Assembly: GCA_023667055.1 (NCBI GenBank)
Contig: JAMPAV010000004.1
Coordinates: forward strand, 15,132 to 79,131
Direction of reading: 5' to 3'
Length of the DNA stretch: 64,000 nucleotides
Origin: Muribaculum sp.
GTDB taxonomy: Bacteria; Bacteroidota; Bacteroidia; Bacteroidales; Muribaculaceae
Part shown: positions 7,159-48,713 of the stretch, in pieces
Layout of the letters: each line of letters begins with the position of its first letter
Position numbering within the stretch: position 1 is the stretch's first letter
Translations under genes and position numbers: made by a program
Notes under the pieces: generated by a model
The model's input: only the letters and a program-made list of their open reading frames with translations
What the model was told of the DNA's origin: nothing
Database searches by the model: none

Positions 7159-8100
7159 ATGGAACATCATAATGATATTTTCATGAATTTGATGACCGAT
7201 TTCGGATTCAAGCGACTATTCGGTACGGAGAAATTCAAACATATATTGATAAGATTCCTCAACATTCTATTCAAAGAGGATGGAATACATGTGGATGATG
7301 TGATCTATCACGACAAGGAGGTGCTTCCTCCGGATTCCAACGGCAAGAGGATTGTCTATGACGTGTATTGCACAACAGTCAAAGACAAAGACCGCGAGCA
7401 TTTTATTGTGGAGATGCAACAAGTGTATCACTCCAACTTTGAGAAAAGAGTTATGTATTATCTCTCGAACGCCCTTACAGCCCAGGGCAAGAAAGGGAGA
7501 ATGTACGACCTTGACCCGGTGTTTGGAATTTTCATCGTTGATTTCAATTTCAAACATCTCTACAATAAACTTGTACAAGACTTCCGCATAATGGAAACGG
7601 AAACACATCAAGTGTTCTCAAACATTATGAGACTTCTGATTGTTTCCCTTGAAGAAGTGAAATCCACATGGAAAGAATGTGAAACAGAACTGGAACAGAT
7701 TACTTACATTATAAAAAACATGCATCTTATGGACAAGAATTCAGAAGCCTACAAAAGCAAAAAATACGAAGACATGTTTGATGCTGCCGAAATAAGCAGC
7801 ATGGCAGCTGAGGATGTAGTGACTTATGGTCAGTCGCAAAGGAAACTCGAGGATATGCAATTGGCTTACGACTGGGCAAGAAACGAAGGATATATCCAAG
7901 GAATGGAGCAAGGAATAGAACAAGGTATAGAACAAGGTATAAAGAAAGGTATAAAGAAAGGTATCGAACGTGGTATAAATCAAGGAAAAGTAGAAGGTAG
8001 AGAAGAAGGCATACGTATTACAGCCAGAAAACTATTTGACAATGGTATTGACCCAGATTTCATTTTTCAAGTCACCGGTCTAAATCTTGGTCAATATTGA
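7159..8100 (+). CDS. Rpn/YhgA-like PD-(D/E)XK nuclease family protein (putative recombination-promoting nuclease)
   Basis: 313 aa. The N-terminus FMNLMTDFGFKRLFG and D...EMQ..Y core (YDVYCTT...HFIVEMQQVYH) are typical of this family. The C-terminal tract has periodic G-I-E/K-Q/K-G repeats. Confidence 0.75.
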   Translation: MEHHNDIFMNLMTDFGFKRLFGTEKFKHILIRFLNILFKEDGIHVDDVIYHDKEVLPPDSNGKRIVYDVYCTTVKDKDREHFIVEMQQVYHSNFEKRVMYYLSNALTAQGKKGRMYDLDPVFGIFIVDFNFKHLYNKLVQDFRIMETETHQVFSNIMRLLIVSLEEVKSTWKECETELEQITYIIKNMHLMDKNSEAYKSKKYEDMFDAAEISSMAAEDVVTYGQSQRKLEDMQLAYDWARNEGYIQGMEQGIEQGIEQGIKKGIKKGIERGINQGKVEGREEGIRITARKLFDNGIDPDFIFQVTGLNLGQY

Positions 8101-12675: not shown

Positions 12676-14880
12676 ATGATACAGATTGTAGAAAAGCGCG
12701 ATGGCCGCGTGGTAGGATATAATGAAGAAAAAATCAAGGCTGCAATCCGCAAGGCCATGATGATGACCGAACAGGGGGAGGATGAAGCACTGATTCAACG
12801 GATCTCCGACCGTATCGGCATGACGGGAAAGGAACGCATGACTGTGGAGGAGATACAGGATAAGGTTGAAATAGAACTCATGAAATCCTCGCGAAAGGAT
12901 GTGGCAAAGCGTTATATCGCATATCGCGACAAACGCTCTGTGGCAAGACGCGGCAAAACACGTGATATTTTTTTGGAAATCATTGAAACAAAAAACAACG
13001 ACATCACACGTGAGAATGCCAATATGAATGCCGACACCCCGGCCGGCATGATGATGAAATTTGCATCAGAGACCACCAAGCCATTCGTGGATGACTATCT
13101 TCTTGATCCGGATGTGAAACAGGCAGTCCGCAACAATTATATACATATCCACGATAAGGACTACTACCCCACCAAGAGTCTGACTTGCGTGCAGCATCCT
13201 CTTGATCACTTGCTCGACAACGGCTTTGTGGCCGGTCATGCCGAAAGCCGCGCTCCTAAGCGTATAGAGACTGCGGGAGTGATAGCCTGCATCTCACTGG
13301 AGACGGCACAAAATGAAATGCACGGCGGACAGGCAATACCTGCTTTTGACTTCTATCTTGCCCCTTTTGTTAGAATAACATATAAAGAGGAATTGAAGAA
13401 CCTTGAAAACCTGACGGGCAGAGATCTTTCAGCTCTCTACGACCGCGAGATTGACGATTATATCAAGAAAGACCTTGATGGTCTTGACGGTGACGAGAGA
13501 CTTTTCCAACACGCAGTAAATCGCACCGTTAGCCGTGTACATCAGTCGATGGAGGCTTTCATTCACAATATGAACACAATCCATTCACGTGGCGGAAACC
13601 AGGTGGTGTTCAGCAGCATCAACTATGGCACGGATACCTCTGCGGAAGGACGCTGTGTGATTCGCGAGATTCTCAATTGCACTTATGAGGGAGTTGGCAA
13701 CGGTGCCACTGCAATTTTCCCAATACAGATATGGAAAAAGAAACGTGGTGTCAGCTATCTACCGGAAGACCGTAACTATGACCTATATCGTCTCGCCTGT
13801 AAAGTAGCCGCACGCAGGTTCTTCCCCAACTTCCTCAATCTTGATGCAACCTACAATCATCATGAACTATGGCGTGCAGACGACCCTCGCCGTTTTGAAT
13901 ATGAAGTGGCAACCATGGGATGCCGCACACGTGTGTTTGAAAACCGGTTTGGCAAGAAAACATCTGTGGGACGCGGCAACATATCATTCTCCACTATTAA
14001 TATAGTGCGCCTTGCCATCGAGTGCATGAATATTCAGAATCAGGAAGAGAGAATCGACCGTTTCTTCCAGCGTCTCAACGACATCCTGGAACTTACCGCC
14101 AAGCAGCTCGACGACCGTTTCCAGTTTCAGAAGACAGCACTCGCCAAGCAATTCCCGCTTGTTATGAGCGCACTATGGATTGACGGTGACAAACTGGATC
14201 CCAATGATACAATTGAGAGTGTAATAAATCAGGGCACACTCGGCATTGGTTTCATTGGACTGGCTGAATGCCTTATCGCCCTTACAGGAAAACACCATGG
14301 CGAAAGCGAGGAAGCTCAGCAGCTTGGTCTGCGCATAGTAAAATACATGCGGTCAAAGGTCAATGAGTTCTCTGAGCGTTATAAGCACAACTATTCTGTG
14401 CTTGCCACTCCCGCTGAGGGTCTGAGCGGAAGATTCACAAAAATTGATCGTAAAACCTTCGGTGAAATCAAGGGCATCACCGACAAGGACTATTACACCA
14501 ATTCCAATCATGTTCCGGTATATTACCATTGCTCACCTCGCCACAAGGCGAAAATCGAGGCTCCATACCATGAGCTTACAGGCGGCGGACATATCTTCTA
14601 TGTTGAGATTGACGGAGATGCCACCCACAATGAGGAGTGCATCATGCAGATAGTGGATATGCTCGATAAGTACAACATGGGTTATGGCTCTGTCAACCAC
14701 AATCGTAACCACTGCCCGAAGTGTGGCTACGAAAATGCCGAGAAAGACGTAACCAACTGTCCGAAATGTGACACCAAGTTTGAGACCATCCAGCGCATCA
14801 CAGGCTATCTTGTCGGCACCACCGACCGCTGGAACTCCGGAAAACTTGCCGAACTCAAAGACAGGGTTGTCCACAAATAA
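12676..14880 (+). CDS. nrdD: Anaerobic ribonucleoside-triphosphate reductase
   Basis: 734 aa with an N-terminal ATP-cone (VEKRDGRVVGYNEEKI), a C-terminal Zn ribbon (CPKCGY...CPKCD) and a glycyl-radical motif RITGYLVG. Followed by nrdG. Confidence 0.95.
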   Translation: MIQIVEKRDGRVVGYNEEKIKAAIRKAMMMTEQGEDEALIQRISDRIGMTGKERMTVEEIQDKVEIELMKSSRKDVAKRYIAYRDKRSVARRGKTRDIFLEIIETKNNDITRENANMNADTPAGMMMKFASETTKPFVDDYLLDPDVKQAVRNNYIHIHDKDYYPTKSLTCVQHPLDHLLDNGFVAGHAESRAPKRIETAGVIACISLETAQNEMHGGQAIPAFDFYLAPFVRITYKEELKNLENLTGRDLSALYDREIDDYIKKDLDGLDGDERLFQHAVNRTVSRVHQSMEAFIHNMNTIHSRGGNQVVFSSINYGTDTSAEGRCVIREILNCTYEGVGNGATAIFPIQIWKKKRGVSYLPEDRNYDLYRLACKVAARRFFPNFLNLDATYNHHELWRADDPRRFEYEVATMGCRTRVFENRFGKKTSVGRGNISFSTINIVRLAIECMNIQNQEERIDRFFQRLNDILELTAKQLDDRFQFQKTALAKQFPLVMSALWIDGDKLDPNDTIESVINQGTLGIGFIGLAECLIALTGKHHGESEEAQQLGLRIVKYMRSKVNEFSERYKHNYSVLATPAEGLSGRFTKIDRKTFGEIKGITDKDYYTNSNHVPVYYHCSPRHKAKIEAPYHELTGGGHIFYVEIDGDATHNEECIMQIVDMLDKYNMGYGSVNHNRNHCPKCGYENAEKDVTNCPKCDTKFETIQRITGYLVGTTDRWNSGKLAELKDRVVHK

Positions 14881-39156: not shown

Positions 39157-39164
39157 CAAAATTA
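39157..39164 (-). promoter_or_regulatory. -7 promoter box TAATTTTG for the etfB operon
   Basis: The minus strand reads TAATTTTG ~120 nt upstream of the etfB ATG. The predicted leader carries the inverted repeat AAAATGCA-N6-TGCATTTT (39113-39134). Confidence 0.4.
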
Positions 39165-39328
39165 ATAAAAAATATTTAAATTATGCAATTTTTAACCGAC
39201 ATTTTCATTAATGTTTCATTAATAATGATCTACAAAGGCTTTCAAATCGGGAATTCACTCGAAGCATAATAGAACGCATGTCGCAGTCAAAAACTTGTTG
39301 AGATTTCCGGTACTCACAGCTACTTAAT

Positions 39329-39375
39329 AAAAAAAGCGTGCAGACACACTATTGGCAATAGTGAAATCTGCACGC
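39329..39375 (-). terminator. Strong intrinsic terminator for a minus-strand transcript
   Basis: GCGTGCAGA (39336-39344) pairs with TCTGCACGC (39367-39375). Inner palindrome CACTATTG / CAATAGTG extends the stem. On the minus strand it is followed by T7 (A7 at 39329-39335 on plus). Confidence 0.75.
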
Positions 39376-39599
39376 ATTACATTGATGAACAATATAATAA
39401 TCCAAGACCTTTCTTGAATAGAGTATAGGACGGCGGATACGTTCATGCCGCGGTCGTCAGGGTCGATACTCCGGACATCTATTTGATGGATAGATGGTTG
39501 TGACAGTATGTCATGGTTCTCTTTTCCGGCGCTCCCTATTGGCATCGGCAAGCAGCGGGCAACGTGTGGGCCTCATTTCTGCAAGAGGAAACTTGCTTC

Positions 39600-39630
39600 A
39601 ATTCACAATGCACAATTCACAATGCACAAT
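39600..39630. repeat. AATKCAC heptad repeat (AATTCACAATGCAC x2 plus AAT)
   Basis: The 31 nt string AATTCACAATGCACAATTCACAATGCACAAT is identical to 50196-50226. Confidence 0.9.
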
Positions 39631-39773
39631 TAGAACTGCCTTTTGCAATCTTAGACCCTTGATGCGGATGAACTGAGAATTGATTCTTGATTATCGTTTC
39701 CGGGTGCAAAGTTACAACACGAGAAAGTGGGCTGCCCCTTATCCATGTAAGTTAACTTAAGTTTCGGATTCAG

Positions 39774-39862
39774 GCATTTTGTTGATGCCAAACAAATTAT
39801 ATCAATCACAGAACAATCACGGAACTGATTTCACAGAATTTTCACAAAACTTTTTTCACAGA
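39774..39862. repeat. Left arm of the long inverted repeat flanking the surface-protein island
   Basis: Core 39804-39862 matches the reverse complement of 48431-48490 at 56 of 60 aligned positions. The outer 30 nt are ~70% similar. It contains five same-orientation CACAGAA-like heptamers starting at 39807, 39818, 39832, 39843 and 39857. Confidence 0.85.
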
Positions 39863-40021
39863 TCGCTGTTTCCTTACCACAAATCTTCTTTGATTCAACT
39901 ATAATTGCCGTAGTCATCGGTTTTCCTACTGTGTAGGAGGCCTCCGGCCCCTTTTGCCGACATCGCTCAATTTTTTTTGTTAAAAATGAGTGAGAAATTT
40001 TGTGGAGTGACGGAAAAGTAG

Positions 40022-40029
40022 TAACTTTG
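40022..40029 (+). promoter_or_regulatory. -7 promoter box TAACTTTG upstream of the LRR surface protein gene
   Basis: Matches TAnnTTTG, 97 nt upstream of the ATG at 40126. Confidence 0.4.
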
Positions 40030-40125
40030 CCGATGCCTACCGCTAAGCATACCCCACCGCATAGCGTGGCAAAAGAAGCATATTTCACTTCTTTCTCATT
40101 ATCAACCATAACAACTTACAACATT

Positions 40126-43100
40126 ATGAAATTGTCGCATCGCAGTTTTGGAGGAACTTTTCTTCACATAGCAATCTTATTAGTCCTGGCATTTTTCCCA
40201 TTCAAAACTGTTCATGCCTTAGAGTCTTACGAGATTAACTCAAAGATTCTTTCCAAAGACTCAAATATATTTCCCGAATGGATCAACGATGAGGAAAACC
40301 CCTGGATATTCAGCAATGACAGCACTTATATCTCTACACCTGCGCACACCGGCACAAATTTTATCACGACGATAAGCATTAAATTCTATTCCGAATATGA
40401 AGTTTATGTAAGCTACAATGAGAGCCATTGGAGTTACACTGGTTTTTCAGTGAGATTTGATGGAGAAGAAGATTATCCGGTTGTGTATAACGGTTATAAA
40501 CTACCCGCCGGTGAACATCAAATTGATTTTGAAGCCAATTTAGGTTATACGGATCACTGGGCTCGTATAAATAGTATCACCTTAAGGGAATTTAAACCAC
40601 TTGAAAGCACTTGTCTTGCAGAGGATTCAATGCCGTTGACATTTGAAAATGACCCTGATAATCCATGGATGGCATACGATGGATATATTCGTTCCATGTG
40701 TAATACTGCTGACCATAGATCTTTTATTTCCACTACATTTACAATTGATGAATTATCGATATTTTCGTGGGAATTCTTAAATAGATGGAGTGGCACATGG
40801 CCTTCAGCATTAGTTTATATAAACGATGAATTATACCAAGATGTACATGATAGGAATCAAAAAGATTGGTATAATAATTCAGTTGTTCTATATCCCGGAA
40901 CATATACCATAAAATTTGGAAACTGGCATCAATACAAGGAAGACTCTTACACTCAAATCCGCAATGTTCGCTTAAGCCAAAACTGGATTGAGGCAAACCT
41001 TTCGGCTCCCGGAGAACTTGGGGTCCGGTTACTTCATTCGCTTAACGGAAAGAATCTGCAGGATGCAGAGCTTGTAAAAATCAAAGGTTCTCTTAATGCG
41101 GATGACTGGAAAACGATAGGACAACTCACGAATATTAAAGCTGTTGACTTCACCGAAACCGATATAACCTCAATTCCCGCAAACGCATTCCAAAACACCA
41201 GTTTAAGTACTGTAATGATGCCGGAAACCGTCAGCGAAATTGGAGACGGCGCATTCATTGGAACAAAATGCTATGAAATAAACATACCCGCTTCGGTGGA
41301 AACAATTGGAAATCAAGCATGGGAAAGAACGCCTATTGCACATATTAATTTTGCCGAAAACTCAAAATTAAAAAAAATTGGAAAAAATGCTTTTTATCAG
41401 ACAAAATTAATTGAATTTATAATGCCCAACACAGTGAAAGACAGTTATAGTGTCACTGACGAGTGGCGTATATTATATGATTGCGATGAGCTTATAAAAG
41501 TTCATCTTTCAGATAGTCTCACAACAGTACCACGGGAAACTGTTTGGGGGTGTGATAAATTAGCTGAGGCCAACATCCCTGCATGTGCCACAAGTATAGG
41601 GTATGAAGCATATGCAGGAAATAACATGGAAACAATTATAATTCCAGAGTTGATTTCTTCCATTGGACAACAAGCTTTTTATAACAGTCACAGAGTAAAA
41701 AAGGTAGTACTAAATTCTAATGTCAATAATATAGATGGGACTTTTAATGGCTGTACTACTATTGACACTATAATTGTAGCATCACCTACACCTCCTACGA
41801 TAAAAAGCGATCCATTCAATAAAGCAGACAAAACCAATGTAACGCTGATTGTTCCGGACTTTGCCATCGACTCATACCGCACCGACAGCTATTGGTATAA
41901 TTTCACAAATACAGTGGCTGGCGACGAGGCTTCCTTGCGCGATTACTGGACTCTAAGAGGCAAACTCACACTCGACAACAACCATCTGATGCAGGGCTCC
42001 CCATCTGTAGAGATGATGACGGGATCAACATTGACCATACTTGACGATGCTGCTCAAAATTTCAATGAGTTTACCTATCAAACACAAGAATCCTCACCCG
42101 CCTCTTTCCTAAGCAGAAGCAACAATCTAAATGCCAATAGTCTGACAACAAAATTTTATGTAGCAGAAGCCAACAAATGGTTTTTCTTCTCGCCGGTTTG
42201 CGACATCAATATGGCCGACATAAGTTATCCATCATCCGATTCATGGGTGATCCGATATTACGACGGCGCTCGACGTGCATCTGAAGACACAAGTTCCGGC
42301 AACTGGATAAATGTGTCCGCTGACGGCAAACTGATGCGCGGACAGGGTTACATCATACAAGCCACCGCCGCCGGTTGGCTCAACATGCCCGTCACACCTG
42401 AAAATCATACAGATTTCTTCGGATCCAATGAGGCCACTCTGCCATTGGTCGACAACGTATGTGAAAATCAGGCAAACACCGGCTGGAATTTCGTGGCCAA
42501 TACATATCCATGCTATTATGACGCCTACTATATGGATGTCCAGTCTCCGCTGACCGTATGGACAGGCTCTACCTACCGTGCATACGTTCCAAATGATGGC
42601 GACAACCTCATGCTGCGTCCCATGCAGCCTTTCTTTGTGCAGAAAACGGCTGCTGACATGACCGCCACAATGCCTCTGGCCGGAAGATCCGTAAACTCCT
42701 CCACTTCACGCGCTCCTCGCGTGGAAAGATACGCAGCAAATCCAAACCGGAATATTCTCAATCTTGAACTCAAGAAGGTCGGTAAGGAAGAGGCTGACGA
42801 CTACACCCGAATCGTCATCAATGAAGATGCCTCTTTCGGTTATGAACTCAATTGCGATGCCTCAAAGTTCATGAGCATGGATGCAGAAATTGCACAGATG
42901 TTCTCATTTGGACTTGAAAACCAACCGATGGCAATCAACGAGCGACCATACGGCGACGGCAATGTGGCTCTTGGGTTCTATTTTCCAAAGAGCGGGGAGA
43001 CTTTCTCCATCACAGCCACCCGAAGCGACCGGCAGGCCTGGATATATGATGCCCATACAGGCCTTGAGCAGGACCTGACCGAAGGAGACTATGTCTTCAC

Positions 43101-43371
43101 TGCCGCAAAGACCGGATATGACTACAATCGCTTCTCAATCAGATTCTCTCCATCGGCAAGTGGTGTTGACTGCATCGACAATACTCCGACACAGGTCTCA
43201 TCCGGCAAGGGCTTCATATCCATAAAAGCTCCGGAATCTGCTTCGGTGGCAGTTTATGCTTCAGACGGCACCGTGGTTGCCAATATGGTGGGCGCATCGG
43301 TAATCAATGTGTCCGCCGGAGTATATGTGGTGAAGGTCAATGAGGAATCTTTCAAGACGATTGTAAAATAA
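40126..43371 (+). CDS. T9SS-sorted cell-surface protein with BspA-type leucine-rich repeats
   Basis: ATG at 40126 gives a signal peptide (MKLSHRSFGGTFLHIAILLVLAFFPFKTVHA). Two tandem ~150 aa N-terminal domains are followed by repeated IP.SV..IG..AF LRR units. The C-terminal ~70 aa (..VAVYASDGTVVANM..GVYVVKVNEESFKTIVK) match the T9SS C-terminal sorting domain pattern. Confidence 0.8.
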   Translation: MKLSHRSFGGTFLHIAILLVLAFFPFKTVHALESYEINSKILSKDSNIFPEWINDEENPWIFSNDSTYISTPAHTGTNFITTISIKFYSEYEVYVSYNESHWSYTGFSVRFDGEEDYPVVYNGYKLPAGEHQIDFEANLGYTDHWARINSITLREFKPLESTCLAEDSMPLTFENDPDNPWMAYDGYIRSMCNTADHRSFISTTFTIDELSIFSWEFLNRWSGTWPSALVYINDELYQDVHDRNQKDWYNNSVVLYPGTYTIKFGNWHQYKEDSYTQIRNVRLSQNWIEANLSAPGELGVRLLHSLNGKNLQDAELVKIKGSLNADDWKTIGQLTNIKAVDFTETDITSIPANAFQNTSLSTVMMPETVSEIGDGAFIGTKCYEINIPASVETIGNQAWERTPIAHINFAENSKLKKIGKNAFYQTKLIEFIMPNTVKDSYSVTDEWRILYDCDELIKVHLSDSLTTVPRETVWGCDKLAEANIPACATSIGYEAYAGNNMETIIIPELISSIGQQAFYNSHRVKKVVLNSNVNNIDGTFNGCTTIDTIIVASPTPPTIKSDPFNKADKTNVTLIVPDFAIDSYRTDSYWYNFTNTVAGDEASLRDYWTLRGKLTLDNNHLMQGSPSVEMMTGSTLTILDDAAQNFNEFTYQTQESSPASFLSRSNNLNANSLTTKFYVAEANKWFFFSPVCDINMADISYPSSDSWVIRYYDGARRASEDTSSGNWINVSADGKLMRGQGYIIQATAAGWLNMPVTPENHTDFFGSNEATLPLVDNVCENQANTGWNFVANTYPCYYDAYYMDVQSPLTVWTGSTYRAYVPNDGDNLMLRPMQPFFVQKTAADMTATMPLAGRSVNSSTSRAPRVERYAANPNRNILNLELKKVGKEEADDYTRIVINEDASFGYELNCDASKFMSMDAEIAQMFSFGLENQPMAINERPYGDGNVALGFYFPKSGETFSITATRSDRQAWIYDAHTGLEQDLTEGDYVFTAAKTGYDYNRFSIRFSPSASGVDCIDNTPTQVSSGKGFISIKAPESASVAVYASDGTVVANMVGASVINVSAGVYVVKVNEESFKTIVK

Positions 43372-43379
43372 AAGTTGCA

Positions 43380-46300
43380 ATGCGTCGGTTTTTCCAAATA
43401 CTGCTGCCTCTGATGGCACTCCTTTCCTGGGGTGTCACAGCCGTTGCCGACTATGACCCTGCAAATCCGCCTGAACCACAGGTGACATACAGCCTGACTG
43501 CAGGCTGTATCCCCGCCGGTGGTGGCCGCGACATTTCAGGTGCGGGTAAATATGCGGCGGGCACATCTGTCCAGATGAACGTCGGGGTCAACACCGGCTT
43601 CCGTTTTTTGCATTGGGAGGATGAGGAAGGCAACATAGTATCCACGGCCACACGTTTCAATTTCGTCATTCCGCAGCGAGACGTAAATCTCACCGCTCGT
43701 TTTGAATATGTCCCTTCCAATCCGTCAGAACCGGAAACGCCGGTTATAAAACAGTACTCCGCGATACATCTTAAGTCGGTGCCGTCGGAGGGGGGAACTT
43801 TCAATAAAACGTCCGGACAAACATACGAGGTAGGGACCTCTCAGGAATTCCGCGCCACGGCCAGGACAAACTATCGGTTTGTCAACTGGACCTTGGACGA
43901 TGATGTCGTATCGGAGTCAAGCACGTTGCAGTTTACTATTCCTTCTGAGGACAAGACTTTGGTGGCAAATTTCGATTATAATCCCGGCAGTCCCGCAGAA
44001 CCGGAAATGACCAAATTCTCAAGAACCCTGACACTCGTCTCAAACCCGCCCGAAGCCGCAACTCTTTCCGGAGGTGGAAGCTATGTGGAAGGCACTGTCA
44101 AAAAAGTATCTGCATCTGTAAACAGATATTATACATTCATCAACTGGACTGCGGAAAACGGGGATACGGTTTCTACGGTGAAAGATTTCGAATTTACCAT
44201 GCCCGACCACGATGTTACCCTTACAGCCAATTTCTCCAGATACTACAATCCCTTGAATCCGGAGGAGCCCGGAAGTGAGGATTCTTCATCGGCAACTATT
44301 GTGCAAAATCCACGTTTTGCCATGTATGACGATTTCCATGTAATGATTCTGTGCGCCACACAAGGTTCTTCAATCCACTACACCATCGATGGCAGCGAAC
44401 CCTCCCGGGTCTTGACCGATGAATGCATGCTATATACCGAGCCATTCTTCGTGCCATCCAACCTGCTTGTAAAGGCCATTGCTTTCAAGGACGGTATGGA
44501 AGATTCGCCGGTGATAAGTTATCAGGTGATGACATATAAGGCAGCGCAACCCTCTTTTTCTTTTTCCGGAAGAAAACTGCATATTACGAGCGATACGGAG
44601 GACACCACTGTCAGATATACCTTAAACGAGTATGATCCAAACGAATCAAGCTCCATATACACAGAGCCGTTTCTGCCCGAGACAAATTGTCTTGTCAAGG
44701 CATACGCTTCCAAAGAGGGTCTCGTGGATTCTCCGATAACGGAATTTCTTTATAAAAAAGAAAACTATACGCTGCCCGCTCCTGCCATGACAAACGACTA
44801 TCGCAATAGCCGGATTGCCATTGAGTCGGAAGACTGCGATTTGGCGGTCACTATCGACGGCGACTACAAGGAATATCATTCGCCGGTCGTCCTTGAAGTG
44901 GATTCGTCCATGCACTCAGTCAGTGCTGTTGCAATCGACAAGACTGAAAATTTCTTTGATTCCCCGCAAATGGATGAGACTTTGGTGTTTCATCTCCCTC
45001 CTGTGGTGACGTATGATGGTCATCAAATTGTGTCGGTGGTGGCTGATGAGGACCCTGATGTGGATTCTGCTGAAATAAACGTACACTTCAATGGTGATGA
45101 AATAGAGGCATCGCATATTTTTGACGATTTTGGCAACTATGAGGCATACGTGGCCTCTGACAACATCTTCCGCTCGGCTTCATATACTTGCCCGATAGAC
45201 TACTTCAACAACGGAAGCAAAGCAGGAGTCAGGAACGGACATAAACTGGCTGAGGCGTTTGAGGACTGGAAAAATGATGAGGGCTATCCTGAATTGACCA
45301 TCACGGGCGACATTGCAAAAGAGGATCTTGAGTTTCTGGTAAATCTTGATGAATTGTCAACCCTTCAGCTTGAGTCTGTAAGGATGGGGGATTCGTCATA
45401 TATTGGGGCAATGAAGGAAAGTAAAATCAAGACAGTGTTGCTCTCGCAAACTGCTGATGGATTGTTGGATGAAATGTCAAGACTCACCTCGGTGGTGTGG
45501 CTAAACCGAAAAGAAAAAATGCCGAAGGAAATATTCGGGGAGAAGGTCAATCCCAATCTTCTTGTATGGGTCTCAGACAAGATTCTTGCTCCTGACAGTG
45601 TCGGAAACATCATAATATATGGATTGAATGAAGATGGCACTCCCAAATATGCCGAAGGCCGGGCCGACAGTATTTCGCTTGTCGCCGGATTCCCTTATAA
45701 TGCGTATGCTCCTTTAGATGTGGATTACATACAGTTTTGCAAAAACTTCACGCAACCGACCGAAATAGATGTATGCCGGGGGTGGGAAACCATCGCACTG
45801 CCGTTTGCTCCTGACACCATCTTTCATAAGATGCAAGGGGAGATATGGCCATATTCCAGATGGAAGGATGCTTACACGAAAGGAGAATTCGGTGAAGAAG
45901 GTCCCAAGCCATTCTGGATTTATAAGGCCACTCCGGAAGGTTGGTCGCTTGCTGACACTATAGAATCCGGTGTGCCATACATTATCTCAATGCCCAACAG
46001 CAAAGACTATAAAAAGGCGTTCAATCTGAAGGGTGAATCGGTTTTCGCTGCCCATAATGTGAGAATCGGGGAGTCTGAGGATGATGGTTTCCCTTATGAG
46101 TGTGATTGGATCAACGGGACCAAACTCCATGCCACATTCATGCCGGTCGATACGGATCATCTTTCGCTCAACAATGAATGGACTGATGCTGTTGGTGACG
46201 TATTGCCCGGATCGGTATTCATCGATGATGCCGAGACATTGCCGTTTGAGGCTTATGTCACCGGAAACGGCAAGCTGCAGAGAATTCCATTGTTTGGAAC

Positions 46301-46526
46301 GAGCAAGGTTCATTCGCAGTTTGATGACAATTGCCCTGACATCTCAATTTCAGTGTTGGGGAATGGCTCGATCCGGATTTCATCCTCCACGACGTGTTCA
46401 ATAGACATTTACACACCAACCGGCTTGAAAATACAATCTGTCCTTATCGGCAATGGCGAGGAATTGGTGGATAATCTTTGTCCCGGCATATATATAATTG
46501 CAGGACAAAAAATCATAATAAAGTAA
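43380..46526 (+). CDS. T9SS-sorted surface protein with three divergent InlB B-repeat domains and two chitobiase/hexosaminidase C-terminal-like domains
   Basis: 1048 aa with a signal peptide. Three ~70 aa units (GGG..SG.G.Y..GT.V...A....Y.F..W...) are separated by NPxxPxEPE linkers. Two units have the form IHYTIDGSEPS...YTEPF. The C-terminus ..IDIYTPTGLKIQSV...GIYIIAGQKIIIK is T9SS CTD-like. Confidence 0.8.
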   Translation: MRRFFQILLPLMALLSWGVTAVADYDPANPPEPQVTYSLTAGCIPAGGGRDISGAGKYAAGTSVQMNVGVNTGFRFLHWEDEEGNIVSTATRFNFVIPQRDVNLTARFEYVPSNPSEPETPVIKQYSAIHLKSVPSEGGTFNKTSGQTYEVGTSQEFRATARTNYRFVNWTLDDDVVSESSTLQFTIPSEDKTLVANFDYNPGSPAEPEMTKFSRTLTLVSNPPEAATLSGGGSYVEGTVKKVSASVNRYYTFINWTAENGDTVSTVKDFEFTMPDHDVTLTANFSRYYNPLNPEEPGSEDSSSATIVQNPRFAMYDDFHVMILCATQGSSIHYTIDGSEPSRVLTDECMLYTEPFFVPSNLLVKAIAFKDGMEDSPVISYQVMTYKAAQPSFSFSGRKLHITSDTEDTTVRYTLNEYDPNESSSIYTEPFLPETNCLVKAYASKEGLVDSPITEFLYKKENYTLPAPAMTNDYRNSRIAIESEDCDLAVTIDGDYKEYHSPVVLEVDSSMHSVSAVAIDKTENFFDSPQMDETLVFHLPPVVTYDGHQIVSVVADEDPDVDSAEINVHFNGDEIEASHIFDDFGNYEAYVASDNIFRSASYTCPIDYFNNGSKAGVRNGHKLAEAFEDWKNDEGYPELTITGDIAKEDLEFLVNLDELSTLQLESVRMGDSSYIGAMKESKIKTVLLSQTADGLLDEMSRLTSVVWLNRKEKMPKEIFGEKVNPNLLVWVSDKILAPDSVGNIIIYGLNEDGTPKYAEGRADSISLVAGFPYNAYAPLDVDYIQFCKNFTQPTEIDVCRGWETIALPFAPDTIFHKMQGEIWPYSRWKDAYTKGEFGEEGPKPFWIYKATPEGWSLADTIESGVPYIISMPNSKDYKKAFNLKGESVFAAHNVRIGESEDDGFPYECDWINGTKLHATFMPVDTDHLSLNNEWTDAVGDVLPGSVFIDDAETLPFEAYVTGNGKLQRIPLFGTSKVHSQFDDNCPDISISVLGNGSIRISSSTTCSIDIYTPTGLKIQSVLIGNGEELVDNLCPGIYIIAGQKIIIK

Positions 46527-46783
46527 TGATAATGGAAATTATAAAAACAGCAATAACGCTGACGTTCCTTTTGAATGCTTCGATGTCGATTGCCCAAAAG
46601 CTTGAGACCAGGGACTTCACTGCCACCAATGAAGTCACGGCAAGGCTTAAGGATACGGAAATGATTGATTCCAACAATGGCAAAGGTGCCGCCCTTATCA
46701 AGATATATACACCCTTTCCGGATGAGATGCTCGGTTTCGACCTTGGTTTCAGAGCCGCTGTCGGCGTGTCAGTATCACTTTAA
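46526..46783 (+). CDS. Small signal-peptide ORF, possibly an N-terminal remnant of a larger surface protein
   Basis: 85 aa from the ATG that overlaps the upstream stop (TAATG). It has a signal peptide ending SIAQ and a segment NGKGAALIKIYTPFP..GFDLG resembling the N-termini of larger Bacteroidales proteins. It ends abruptly. Confidence 0.35.
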   Translation: MIMEIIKTAITLTFLLNASMSIAQKLETRDFTATNEVTARLKDTEMIDSNNGKGAALIKIYTPFPDEMLGFDLGFRAAVGVSVSL

Positions 46784-46795
46784 ACGGAATGTAAG

Positions 46796-48220
46796 ATGAA
46801 CAAAACCATATATCAATCAATCGCAGCACTTTTTATCGCATTTGTCGCCACCGGATGCGGCGACAACTACGATGCTGTATATGAACCGGTGAAGAGCATA
46901 AAGGTCCTGACAGTCACTCCGAGTTCGATCAACTATTCTCCTGAAAGGAACGAGCTGACCCTGGCTTCCACCTCTTCCACCACCACCATCGTCGTGGAGA
47001 GCAATACGAGGTGGAGCGTCGAAGTCAGTTATCCGGCGGATTCTGAATCCCGCGGATGGCTTGATGCTTCCGTCTATAACGGGAGCGGCAACGATATGTT
47101 CGACATCAGTGTGCTTGAGAATATCGGCGACCCACGGAAATGCAGCATATCCGTCAGCGCCATTGACGCAGAGGGCAACGTAATCAGTGGATCAGACGGG
47201 GCTTTTTATACCATCAATGTGGTTCAAAACAACAGCAACGTACGTCTGACTCCAACCTCAGTGCAACCTTTTGTCGCGGTAAATCCACAGTCGCAAGACT
47301 TCAACATTATAGCCGACGATGGAATAGAATGGGATCTGACATTGACATGTGAGGAGACCAATGATGTGAAGAATGCTGAATTCATGAAGATAAGACATGG
47401 TGAGGATATACAGGAAATTTCATCCACTCACTTTGCAGGAAAAGGAAATTCAAGTTTTACACTTTCTTTGGAAACCAACAGAATTTCTGCCGACCGCATT
47501 GGTTTTGTGACTCTCGAAAGTGGTCTTGGATCATATACTGTGGAAATCAGGCAACTTGCCACTGAATTTACATTTGACGTGTCGCTCGACGACATGAAGG
47601 ATCTGCCGGCGGAGGGTGGCTCTTTGCAGTTTGGTGTGTATTCTCCTCAGATAGCATGGGAGATTCAAGGTGTGCCGTCGTGGGCATCATTTGATGTGCT
47701 GAAGGGAGATGCTCTTGGCTCAAGGGTCGTTGTAATGGCAAACATAGAGTCCAACCCCTCCAGTGTAGAGCGGTCGGCAATGATATCCTTTGTGCCTGTG
47801 GGTGAAAATGCTGATTTGTATCAGAAATATAATGTCACGATTTCACAGGCGGCAAGTCCGAGACCAGTGCTAAGCACCCCATGGATTTTGAATTTCACCA
47901 ATAGTGAGGTTGAAATTGAATATAATTATTATTCGCCAATAAGGAGAATAGAATCGGCTTACCTGATGTGGTGTCTTTATGATGAACAAGATCCTTCGGA
48001 CAAAGACTGGAACATAAACGAAGTTGAGGACTTTGAGAAAGATCAGACAAGTGGATCTGTAAGAATGAAGATTGATGGTCTTAAGACGGCCACAACTTAC
48101 TTGTTTCGTGGAAGGTTGATAACTTCCGATGGGGAAATAATAGATGGAAACATCACCGAACCATTCACGACTGCAGGTGTTCTTCCGGGGGAATCCGACA
48201 ATCCAACGCCCGGCTCATAG
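46796..48220 (+). CDS. Lipoprotein with multiple BACON-like domains
   Basis: 474 aa with a lipobox (FVATGC). Repeated units of the form LTVTPSSINYSPE...TTIVVESNTRWSVEV...WLDAS...GSGNDMFDISV..N....R.CSISVSA are typical of BACON domains. Confidence 0.75.
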   Translation: MNKTIYQSIAALFIAFVATGCGDNYDAVYEPVKSIKVLTVTPSSINYSPERNELTLASTSSTTTIVVESNTRWSVEVSYPADSESRGWLDASVYNGSGNDMFDISVLENIGDPRKCSISVSAIDAEGNVISGSDGAFYTINVVQNNSNVRLTPTSVQPFVAVNPQSQDFNIIADDGIEWDLTLTCEETNDVKNAEFMKIRHGEDIQEISSTHFAGKGNSSFTLSLETNRISADRIGFVTLESGLGSYTVEIRQLATEFTFDVSLDDMKDLPAEGGSLQFGVYSPQIAWEIQGVPSWASFDVLKGDALGSRVVVMANIESNPSSVERSAMISFVPVGENADLYQKYNVTISQAASPRPVLSTPWILNFTNSEVEIEYNYYSPIRRIESAYLMWCLYDEQDPSDKDWNINEVEDFEKDQTSGSVRMKIDGLKTATTYLFRGRLITSDGEIIDGNITEPFTTAGVLPGESDNPTPGS

Positions 48221-48430
48221 CGTCACGCGTGGTCGCAAAGCTGTTCCGCCACTCAGGGCTTGCCATGACGTCACCGAATCCAACCCCCAGCTGCCTCAGC
48301 CATCTTATTTCACCCCTTCCCCTCCTTCCAAATTTTCGGACTCTGGGCTTACATAGGCCCCTTACCGACAAAACAACCCACCTCTACAAGCGTTCAGTGA
48401 TAGTTCCGGTTTCTGCAAGGAAACCGGTAG

Positions 48431-48520
48431 TCTGTGAAAAAAAGTTTTGTGAAAATTCTGTGAAATGTGTTCCGTGATTGTTCTGTGAATAAAATAACAT
48501 CTTTGGTCTCAACGAAATGC
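48431..48520. repeat. Right arm of the long inverted repeat flanking the surface-protein island
   Basis: Reverse complement of the left arm (see 39774-39862). The five heptamers have the same order and spacing, inverted. Confidence 0.85.
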
Positions 48521-48620
48521 AAAGAATAAGAACTTGTGTTTTTTGTTAAATGAGCATTTTGTCGTAAGAAAAAATATCGGAAATAAGACGTTTTTATTTG
48601 CACATGTGGATAAAAAATGG

Positions 48621-48628
48621 TATTTTTG
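48621..48628 (+). promoter_or_regulatory. -7 promoter box TATTTTTG upstream of uxaB
   Basis: Matches TAnnTTTG, 86 nt upstream of the ATG. Confidence 0.35.
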
Positions 48629-48713
48629 CATATTGAAGAAAATAAACTTCAGATAGAATAACTAACCTATTTGAACAATCTAATACGAAAATATACATAA
48701 TCTCATAACAATC

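Follow-up and report, generated by a model that had tools for sequence, protein, structure and literature searches.

Introduction

Short DNA sites repeated in the same orientation are part of several described systems, and here we compare with them a pair of inverted-repeat arms, each containing five such sites, that border a surface-protein operon in a 64,000-nt stretch of DNA from a member of the Muribaculaceae. This whole stretch is called the window, and all coordinates are positions in it, its first nucleotide being position 1. Winged-helix response regulators of the PhoB and ArcA type have tandem direct-repeat operators, in which short repeats are about 11 bp apart. The ends of Tn7 (TnsB sites), Mu (MuA sites), Tn5053 and IS21 contain several transposase-binding sites, and mobile insertion cassettes such as MIC231 are also known. 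In the case of tyrosine integrases (lambda with its P and P' arms, Tn916, CTnDOT) clusters of arm-type sites are found at the ends of the integrated elements. The parC centromere of plasmid R1 is formed by two sets of five 11-bp iterons, in direct orientation and 39 bp apart, around one promoter. In Bacteroides, the predicted operators of the hybrid two-component system (HTCS) and SusR-like regulators consist of two directly repeated sites, about 21 bp apart on average (PMC3878776), and the repeats of the invertible segments (invertons) of Bacteroidales are typically 10-40 nt long (PMC11892184).

The arms share with the PhoB/ArcA-type and HTCS/SusR-like operators the short direct repeats about 11 bp apart, between two and five to a set, the recurrence of the two-site composite at about 20-25 bp and the location in promoter-bearing intergenic regions. 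They differ from them in the alternation of 11 and 14-15 nt, in a distance of at least 66-136 nt to the -33 elements, in being missing from orthologous promoters, in forming an inverted pair 8.6 kb apart and in having no known cognate regulator. Similarly to the ends of Tn7, Mu and IS21 and to MIC231, these are inverted ends of about 90-150 bp with several same-orientation sites each, around cargo genes without a transposase; unlike them, they show no target-site duplication, conserved tips, sharp edge, transposition genes or other copies that we could find, and their terminal part is the least conserved. With integrase arm-type sites they have in common that short direct repeats are clustered just inside each end of an accessory block, but the arms are homologous to each other over their whole length, and a common core direct repeat, an integrase and a tRNA target are all missing. 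Sets of five phased short repeats are also found in R1 parC, where they are bound cooperatively by a small DNA-binding protein, whereas the sets described here are inverted, 8.6 kb apart and chromosomal. Finally, as in the invertons and shufflons of Bacteroidales (PMC11892184), inverted repeats adjoin surface-protein genes in a gut Bacteroidales genome; here, however, the repeats are 90 nt long and imperfect, the 8.6-kb segment has its own promoter, no invertase is nearby and one orientation has been seen. Every reading of the locus falls in a known kind of system, either operator arrays or multi-site transposon ends, and the sequence itself has no detectable relative. We tentatively favor that a protein-binding operator array was duplicated in inverted orientation to give the arms, and that both copies were kept, one at each border of the operon.

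Two inverted copies of a phased five-site array

The arms enclose a same-strand group of four genes (g1 to g4, the island) and separate it from etfB, etfA and the acyl-CoA dehydrogenase gene (acd), which are on the minus strand at the left, and from uxaB, uxaA and uxaC, followed by MFS, GH28 and GH88 genes, at the right. A repeat search of the window delimited them at 39774-39856 and 48438-48520, with a length of 83 nt, 87% complementarity and a separation of 8581 nt. When 39774-39863 and the reverse complement of 48430-48520 were aligned globally, 78 of the 91 columns proved identical, the rest being 12 substitutions and one 1-nt indel, and perfect stretches of 20 and 23 nt are common to both. 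The first-pass annotation of this DNA had described a core matching at 56 of 60 positions, and this could be confirmed (3 substitutions and 1 indel between the copies over 39804-39862). It had also put at about 70% the similarity continuing outward to 39774 and 48520; our measurement for these outer 32 nt was 72% (23/32), while the core reaches 93%. Past the arms, weak similarity goes on to about 39757/48537 on the outer side and to about 39885/48406 on the inner one. The elements of the repeat are the following.

39774-39863 (+): left arm, 32 outer nt and then the heptamer array
39806-39863 (+): left array, five sites TCACAGAA, TCACGGAA, TCACAGAA, TCACAAAA and TCACAGAT, starting at 39806, 39817, 39831, 39842 and 39856
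48430-48520 (-): right arm, whose minus strand corresponds to the left arm
48430-48488 (-): right array, the same five sites in the same order except that the fifth is TCACAGAC, with minus-strand starts at 48488, 48477, 48463, 48452 and 48437
48406-48427 (no strand assigned): perfect hairpin with an 8-bp stem, CCGGTTTC-TGCAAG-GAAACCGG, adjoining the right arm on its inner side
39946-39962 (+), partner at 48356-48370: short direct repeat of the first-pass annotation, at chance level and not counted in the feature

Each arm has five TCACRRA sites in the same orientation, of which the fifth is TCACAGA(T/C), with T in the left arm and C in the right one. The start-to-start spacing in the left array is 11/14/11/14 nt, equal to a 25-nt two-site unit repeated 2.3 times, and in the right array 11/14/11/15 nt, one extra T lengthening the last gap. 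The five heptamers spaced 11/14/11/14 nt that had been described for both arms are therefore exact for the left arm only, since in the right one the fifth is CACAGAC and the last gap 15 nt. Within the pairs the sites are 11 nt apart, that is, one helical turn, and between pairs 14-15 nt. The composite TCACRRAA-N3-TCACRRAA has 4 exact occurrences in the window, all of them within the arms, compared to 0.01 in shuffled sequences. The single site is not enriched window-wide (14 found vs 13.4 expected), and 8 of these 14 are located in the arms.

The differences between the two arms are unevenly distributed. Nine of them fall in the outer 32 columns vs 4 in the 59 columns of the core (p = 0.010), and within the core there are none in the 35 TCACRRA positions vs 4 in the other 24 columns (p = 0.023, or p = 0.09 when 8-mers are used instead of TCACRRA), these statistics being derived from two sequences with 13 differences in all. 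Such a distribution suggests constraint on the sites. Besides, the order of the site variants (AG, GG, AG, AA, AG) is kept in both arms, indicating that the array was copied as a whole.

Several trivial explanations of the repeat were discarded. An assembly artefact is ruled out by the 13 differences between the arms and by an independent assembly with an identical right arm, which matches the left arm with 84.6% identity over 104 nt (E = 5.6e-25). The arms overlap only two open reading frames (ORFs), at 39831-40109 (-) and 48229-48477 (+); they cross the arm in different frames, are unconserved and have no family match, so that a coding nature was also rejected. A stem formed by pairing between the 5' and 3' ends of a messenger RNA is incompatible with the position of the left arm, upstream of the island promoter, and with differences between the arms that are not compensatory. 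As for the hairpin of the right arm, no T-run follows it on either strand, which means that it is not a canonical terminator; its left counterpart at 39864-39885 is a decayed copy, with GTTTCCTT in common. The direct repeat GGCCCCTT(TTG/A)CCGACA that had been noticed just inside the arms does exist in the sequence but did not stand up to shuffling. When the two inner spacers are aligned locally in direct orientation, the best score is 19, a value reached by 196 of 1000 shuffles, and the pair in question scores about 18 in our own scoring, reached by 328 of 1000.

Position of the arms relative to promoters

Both arms are located in spacers that contain promoters. The relevant elements are these.

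39999-40029 (+): candidate promoter of the island operon, of Bacteroidetes type (TTTG, 19 nt, TAACTTTG), inside the repeat-bounded segment and 159 nt from the left array
48597-48628 (+): uxaB promoter (TTTG, 20 nt, TATTTTTG), which is conserved in relatives and has its -33 element 108 nt downstream of the end of the right array
39325-39714 (-): outward-facing unit beside the left arm, about 370 nt, with a -7 box TAACTTTG at 39714-39707 and a strong intrinsic terminator at 39373-39335 plus a T-run

The left copy has the leftward -7 box (39714) on one side and the promoter of the island (40022) on the other; the right copy is preceded by the end of the island and followed by the uxaB promoter (48621). 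Being inverted, each copy presents the same face to the outward-facing promoter at its side. A promoter motif for etfB is found at 39157-39164. A motif scan detected no canonical promoter transcribing either arm, which makes a role at the DNA level likelier than one at the RNA level. There is no intrinsic terminator between g4 and uxaB, and no Rfam family appeared at the gathering score in the window, nor at E values up to 10 around either arm.

The minus-strand unit at 39325-39714 is a candidate for a lineage-specific small RNA, as judged from its sequence features. Its approximately 370 nt contain no convincing ORF and have a minimum free energy of -106.5 kcal/mol (z = -3.2 vs shuffles); it has no match to any Rfam family and is missing upstream of etfB in relatives. 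Within this unit, at 39599-39635 and about 170 nt outside the arm, there is a run with a period of 7 nt, TTCACAATGCACAATTCACAATGCACAATT, which includes four CACAAT motifs oriented as the sites of the left arm; only chance matches to enterobacterial plasmids were found for it. At the other side, the spacer of the uxaB promoter contains a perfect DnaA-box-like 9-mer, TGTGGATAA (48607-48615), that is probably due to chance because it is not conserved in relatives.

Genes of the island and of the window

The gene content given by the first-pass annotation was borne out at both flanks (etfB/etfA/acd and uxaB/uxaA/uxaC) and also inside the arms, where we find LRR_5, InlB-B-repeat and BACON genes and a small ORF.

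40126-43371 (+): g1, BspA-type leucine-rich-repeat protein (LRR_5) of 1081 aa, with a weak, sub-threshold type IX secretion system (T9SS) type-A sorting tail at the C terminus
43380-46526 (+): g2, protein of 1048 aa with InlB-B-repeat, Fn3-associated and CHB_HEX_C domain annotation
46535-46783 (+): g3, remnant of 82-83 aa, equivalent to the two termini (N and C) of the product of a gene of 509 aa that is intact in the homologous island L047
46796-48220 (+): g4, protein of 474 aa annotated with BACON domains

Four secreted or surface-protein genes had been counted in the segment. There are indeed four ORFs on the same strand, but the third is not intact. It retains the first ~80 and the last ~13 codons of a PEGA/CarboxypepD_reg-like gene (L047, positions 13162-14691), and this truncation points to an internal deletion in the island of the window.

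Among the ORFs of the window of at least 150 aa and not included in longer ones, a Pfam search revealed no integrase, invertase or regulator gene, and no tRNA or tmRNA gene was found in the window. The claim that the window lacks recombinases, integrases and transposases has to be amended in one respect, a gene at 7159-8100 for a Rpn-family PD-(D/E)XK nuclease/putative transposase (PF12784, TIGR01784), located 32 kb from the arms.

The locus in related genomes

The best relatives of UxaB and EtfB were found in Muribaculaceae metagenome-assembled genomes (MAGs). Exact look-ups of EtfB, UxaB, g1 and g4 gave no match, and g2 was found on only one Logan contig of 7980 nt (L046, from SRR18716857). 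This contig corresponds to window positions 40659-48638 with four substitutions, all in coding sequence, and has an identical right arm with the same junction to the uxaB promoter. The same strain is present in this second sample, with the right junction unchanged. The closest of the other genomes belong to a different species (UxaB 96% at the amino acid and 80% at the nucleotide level; EtfB 90-92% at the amino acid level).

Upstream of uxaB these relatives have PAP2 and lipid-A deacylase genes, or a GNAT gene, and the similarity to the window begins only at about 48584, in the uxaB promoter. At the other side, in the five relatives with 90-92% EtfB identity a divergent nhaA precedes etfB, and the similarity ends at about 39193, in the etfB promoter. 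Between these two limits a single block remains.

39194-48583 (no strand assigned): block without counterpart beside etfB or uxaB in the closest relatives recovered, containing the small-RNA-like unit, both arms and the island

No transposase gene adjoins this block. No remnant of nhaA that could pin the left breakpoint was found. An empty site, with etf adjoining uxa, had been suggested as a check, and none was seen among the relatives recovered. The related idea of an insertion into a formerly palindromic spacer between etf and uxa did not find support either; the neighbors of both genes in relatives are those just mentioned, and neither of the two promoter regions contains an arm. Synteny around the etf and uxa operons is poorly kept in Muribaculaceae. 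Downstream of the etf-acd operon, for example, there is gcvT in L050 and L051 and alaS in the window. In another of the loci (L016, 2562-2942) a four-helix-bundle gene of the 23S_rRNA_IVP/bAvd family is located between etfA and the acyl-CoA dehydrogenase gene.

A homologous island was identified in the Muribaculaceae MAG GCA_037193585.1 (L047), with a g2 homolog of 60% amino acid and 67% nucleotide identity. It is placed at another locus, between an ABC-ATPase gene and rsmF, and has two more genes; its fifth gene, of 639 aa, is missing from the island of the window. Neither a flanking inverted repeat nor the site array is present there. The region in common is restricted to the coding part (40104-48220), with the arms 210-240 nt outside of it. 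The absence of arms from L047 indicates that they are not a feature of this operon family.

Searches for further copies of the arms

Specifically we have checked the first-pass suggestion that other copies of the arm should be sought, and none turned up. A profile of the arm run with nhmmer detected no third copy in the window or in 476 kb of related loci, and no other intergenic pair of sites was found in the window or in the related Muribaculaceae loci. A loose four-site pattern gave 7 matches in 185,579 GTDB species representatives, 28 in JGI metagenomes and 1 in IMG/VR, and a three-site pattern gave 2 matches in IMG/VR. All of them were rejected as arm copies, being unrelated 11-nt tandem arrays, one set of which is coding. 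No copy was present among plasmid (PLSDB) and phage records, and a blastn search with 39190-40130 matched only a simple repeat. The GTDB scan did not return the arms of the window themselves, indicating that this genome is outside the set or masked; of this genome itself, the searches covered the window. A literature search for the site sequence gave nothing relevant.

Two of the unrelated arrays can be mentioned for their location. In a Bacteroides MAG (L007, 7439-7480) four TCACATAA sites are found 64-105 nt upstream of an operon with fn3 and SusC-like genes, and in a Prevotellaceae MAG (L001, 7577-7618) four TCACGGAAA sites come about 2 kb after the end of a Peptidase_M15 (endolysin-type) gene.

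Tests of whether the block moves or flips

For the arms flanking the surface-protein operon, none of our tests shows that the block moves or flips. Terminal inverted repeats are there (83-91 nt, 86-87% identity). However, no target-site duplication appeared at any equivalent boundary pair, allowing up to 3 nt of slip, and the best candidate, a 5-mer 47 nt outside the repeat, is about what is expected by chance. An att-like direct core outside the arms was not found either, the best being a 9-mer reached by 282 of 500 shuffles. Conservation is lowest at the outer edge of the repeat, the homology fades gradually without TG...CA tips, and the outermost site begins 32 nt inside the repeat boundary instead of abutting the terminus. 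Between the arms there is no DDE transposase with an AAA+ partner, only the four adhesin-type genes. No inward-facing TAnnTTTG was found outside the segment and, with the candidate promoter of the island inside, an inversion would not switch the operon. A single orientation has been seen so far, in the window and in L046. The suggestion of a mobile or invertible cassette has found no positive support, considering together these tests, the failure to find other copies, the island of L047 without repeat and the common right junction of L046.

A possible operator array kept at both borders

The arms are inverted copies of one non-coding module of about 90 bp, the working part of which would be the five phased TCACRRA sites, laid out as two 11-bp-spaced pairs plus a lone fifth site. 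The array might be the operator-like target of a DNA-binding protein whose gene is elsewhere in the genome; this protein would sit head-to-tail on the direct repeats, like winged-helix response regulators and AraC-type regulators. In this lineage the module underwent an inverted duplication, and both copies remain in the promoter-bearing spacers that border a lineage-specific adhesin-type operon. Binding could then affect transcription at the borders, and the two arrays may act separately or perhaps by being bridged. Among the possibilities put forward in the first-pass annotation, that of paired arrays for a direct-repeat binder is the best anatomical fit, as differences avoid the sites and the arms are in promoter-bearing spacers; at the same time no regulator was identified and the arrays are unusually far from promoters. 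We also count in favor of an operator the similar spacing of the unrelated TCACATAA array of the Bacteroides MAG. We propose this explanation as a tentative one, preferred but by no means established.

A number of observations weigh against it. Classical activators bind nearer to promoters than these arrays, which are at least 66 nt (left array, outward), 136 nt (left array, island side) and 108 nt (right array) from the nearest -33 position. The alternation of 11 and 14-15 nt places the five sites on more than one face of the helix. The array is missing from the etfB and uxaB promoters of relatives and from the L047 island, no additional pair of sites was found in the intergenic regions of the window or in the related Muribaculaceae loci, and the window has no regulator gene. 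The similarity between arms extends 32 nt past the sites, which indicates a segmental duplication and not convergence of sites, and the statistical case for constraint on them comes from only 13 differences.

Two explanations that do without an operator deserve consideration. The first is that the arms are the old multi-site ends of a transposon, a relic non-autonomous cassette whose adhesin cargo was moved in trans by a transposase encoded elsewhere. Inverted arms around accessory genes, in a block that is missing from relatives, with several direct-repeat sites at each end, would be expected from it, and the family of the island is indeed found at different loci in different genomes. The boundaries speak against it, without target-site duplication or TG...CA tips, with the least conserved part outermost and the first site 32 nt inside. 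Neither does it fit easily with arms separated by 210-240 nt from the sole region in common with L047, an island that has no flanking repeat of its own, nor with the lack of copies in GTDB representatives, JGI metagenomes, IMG/VR, PLSDB and phage records and of a transposase adjoining the block. We consider this origin rather unlikely.

The second is that the repeat has no function and is a scar, an inverted segmental duplication produced by regional reshuffling, the core of which would be better kept by a local patch of gene conversion or by chance. Both borders coincide with synteny breaks against every relative recovered, the sequence outside the sites is also similar between the arms, the within-core test is not significant with 8-mers, and no homolog or regulon partner came out of the searches made. 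What this explanation accounts for poorly is the distribution of the differences, concentrated in the outer columns and absent from the TCACRRA positions, since a conversion patch would not confine them to the long spacers. Besides, a regular phased array of five sites is unlikely to have been meaningless to begin with. A scar is in our view a doubtful explanation.

Going back to an operator array, a more elaborate version can be imagined in which one oligomerising direct-repeat binder bridges both arrays and loops out the 8.6-kb operon, silencing it or insulating it from the etf-side and uxa promoters. Such a bacterial boundary or loop element seems to us very unlikely. Also very unlikely is phase variation by a recombinase encoded elsewhere that would flip the adhesin operon between the arms, because, even if inverted repeats around surface-protein genes are common in gut Bacteroidales and the arms share long perfect stretches, they are 90 nt long and 86% identical vs the 10-40 nt typical of invertons (PMC11892184), the promoter candidate is inside with no inward one outside to be switched, the window has no invertase gene and both available assemblies have the same right junction.

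Implications

The structure described here is genuine and tidy. It warns that neither mobility nor phase variation should be deduced solely from surface-protein genes being flanked by an inverted repeat. Its practical value is modest, a well-defined 60-nt probe for pull-down. If the arms were relic transposon ends, they would point to an undescribed element with multi-site ends in Bacteroidales. If they are operators, they would represent a rare case of one operator array kept at both borders of an operon, and would be the mark of a new regulator acting on a T9SS-type adhesin operon in Muribaculaceae, one of the major families of the gut, although little studied.

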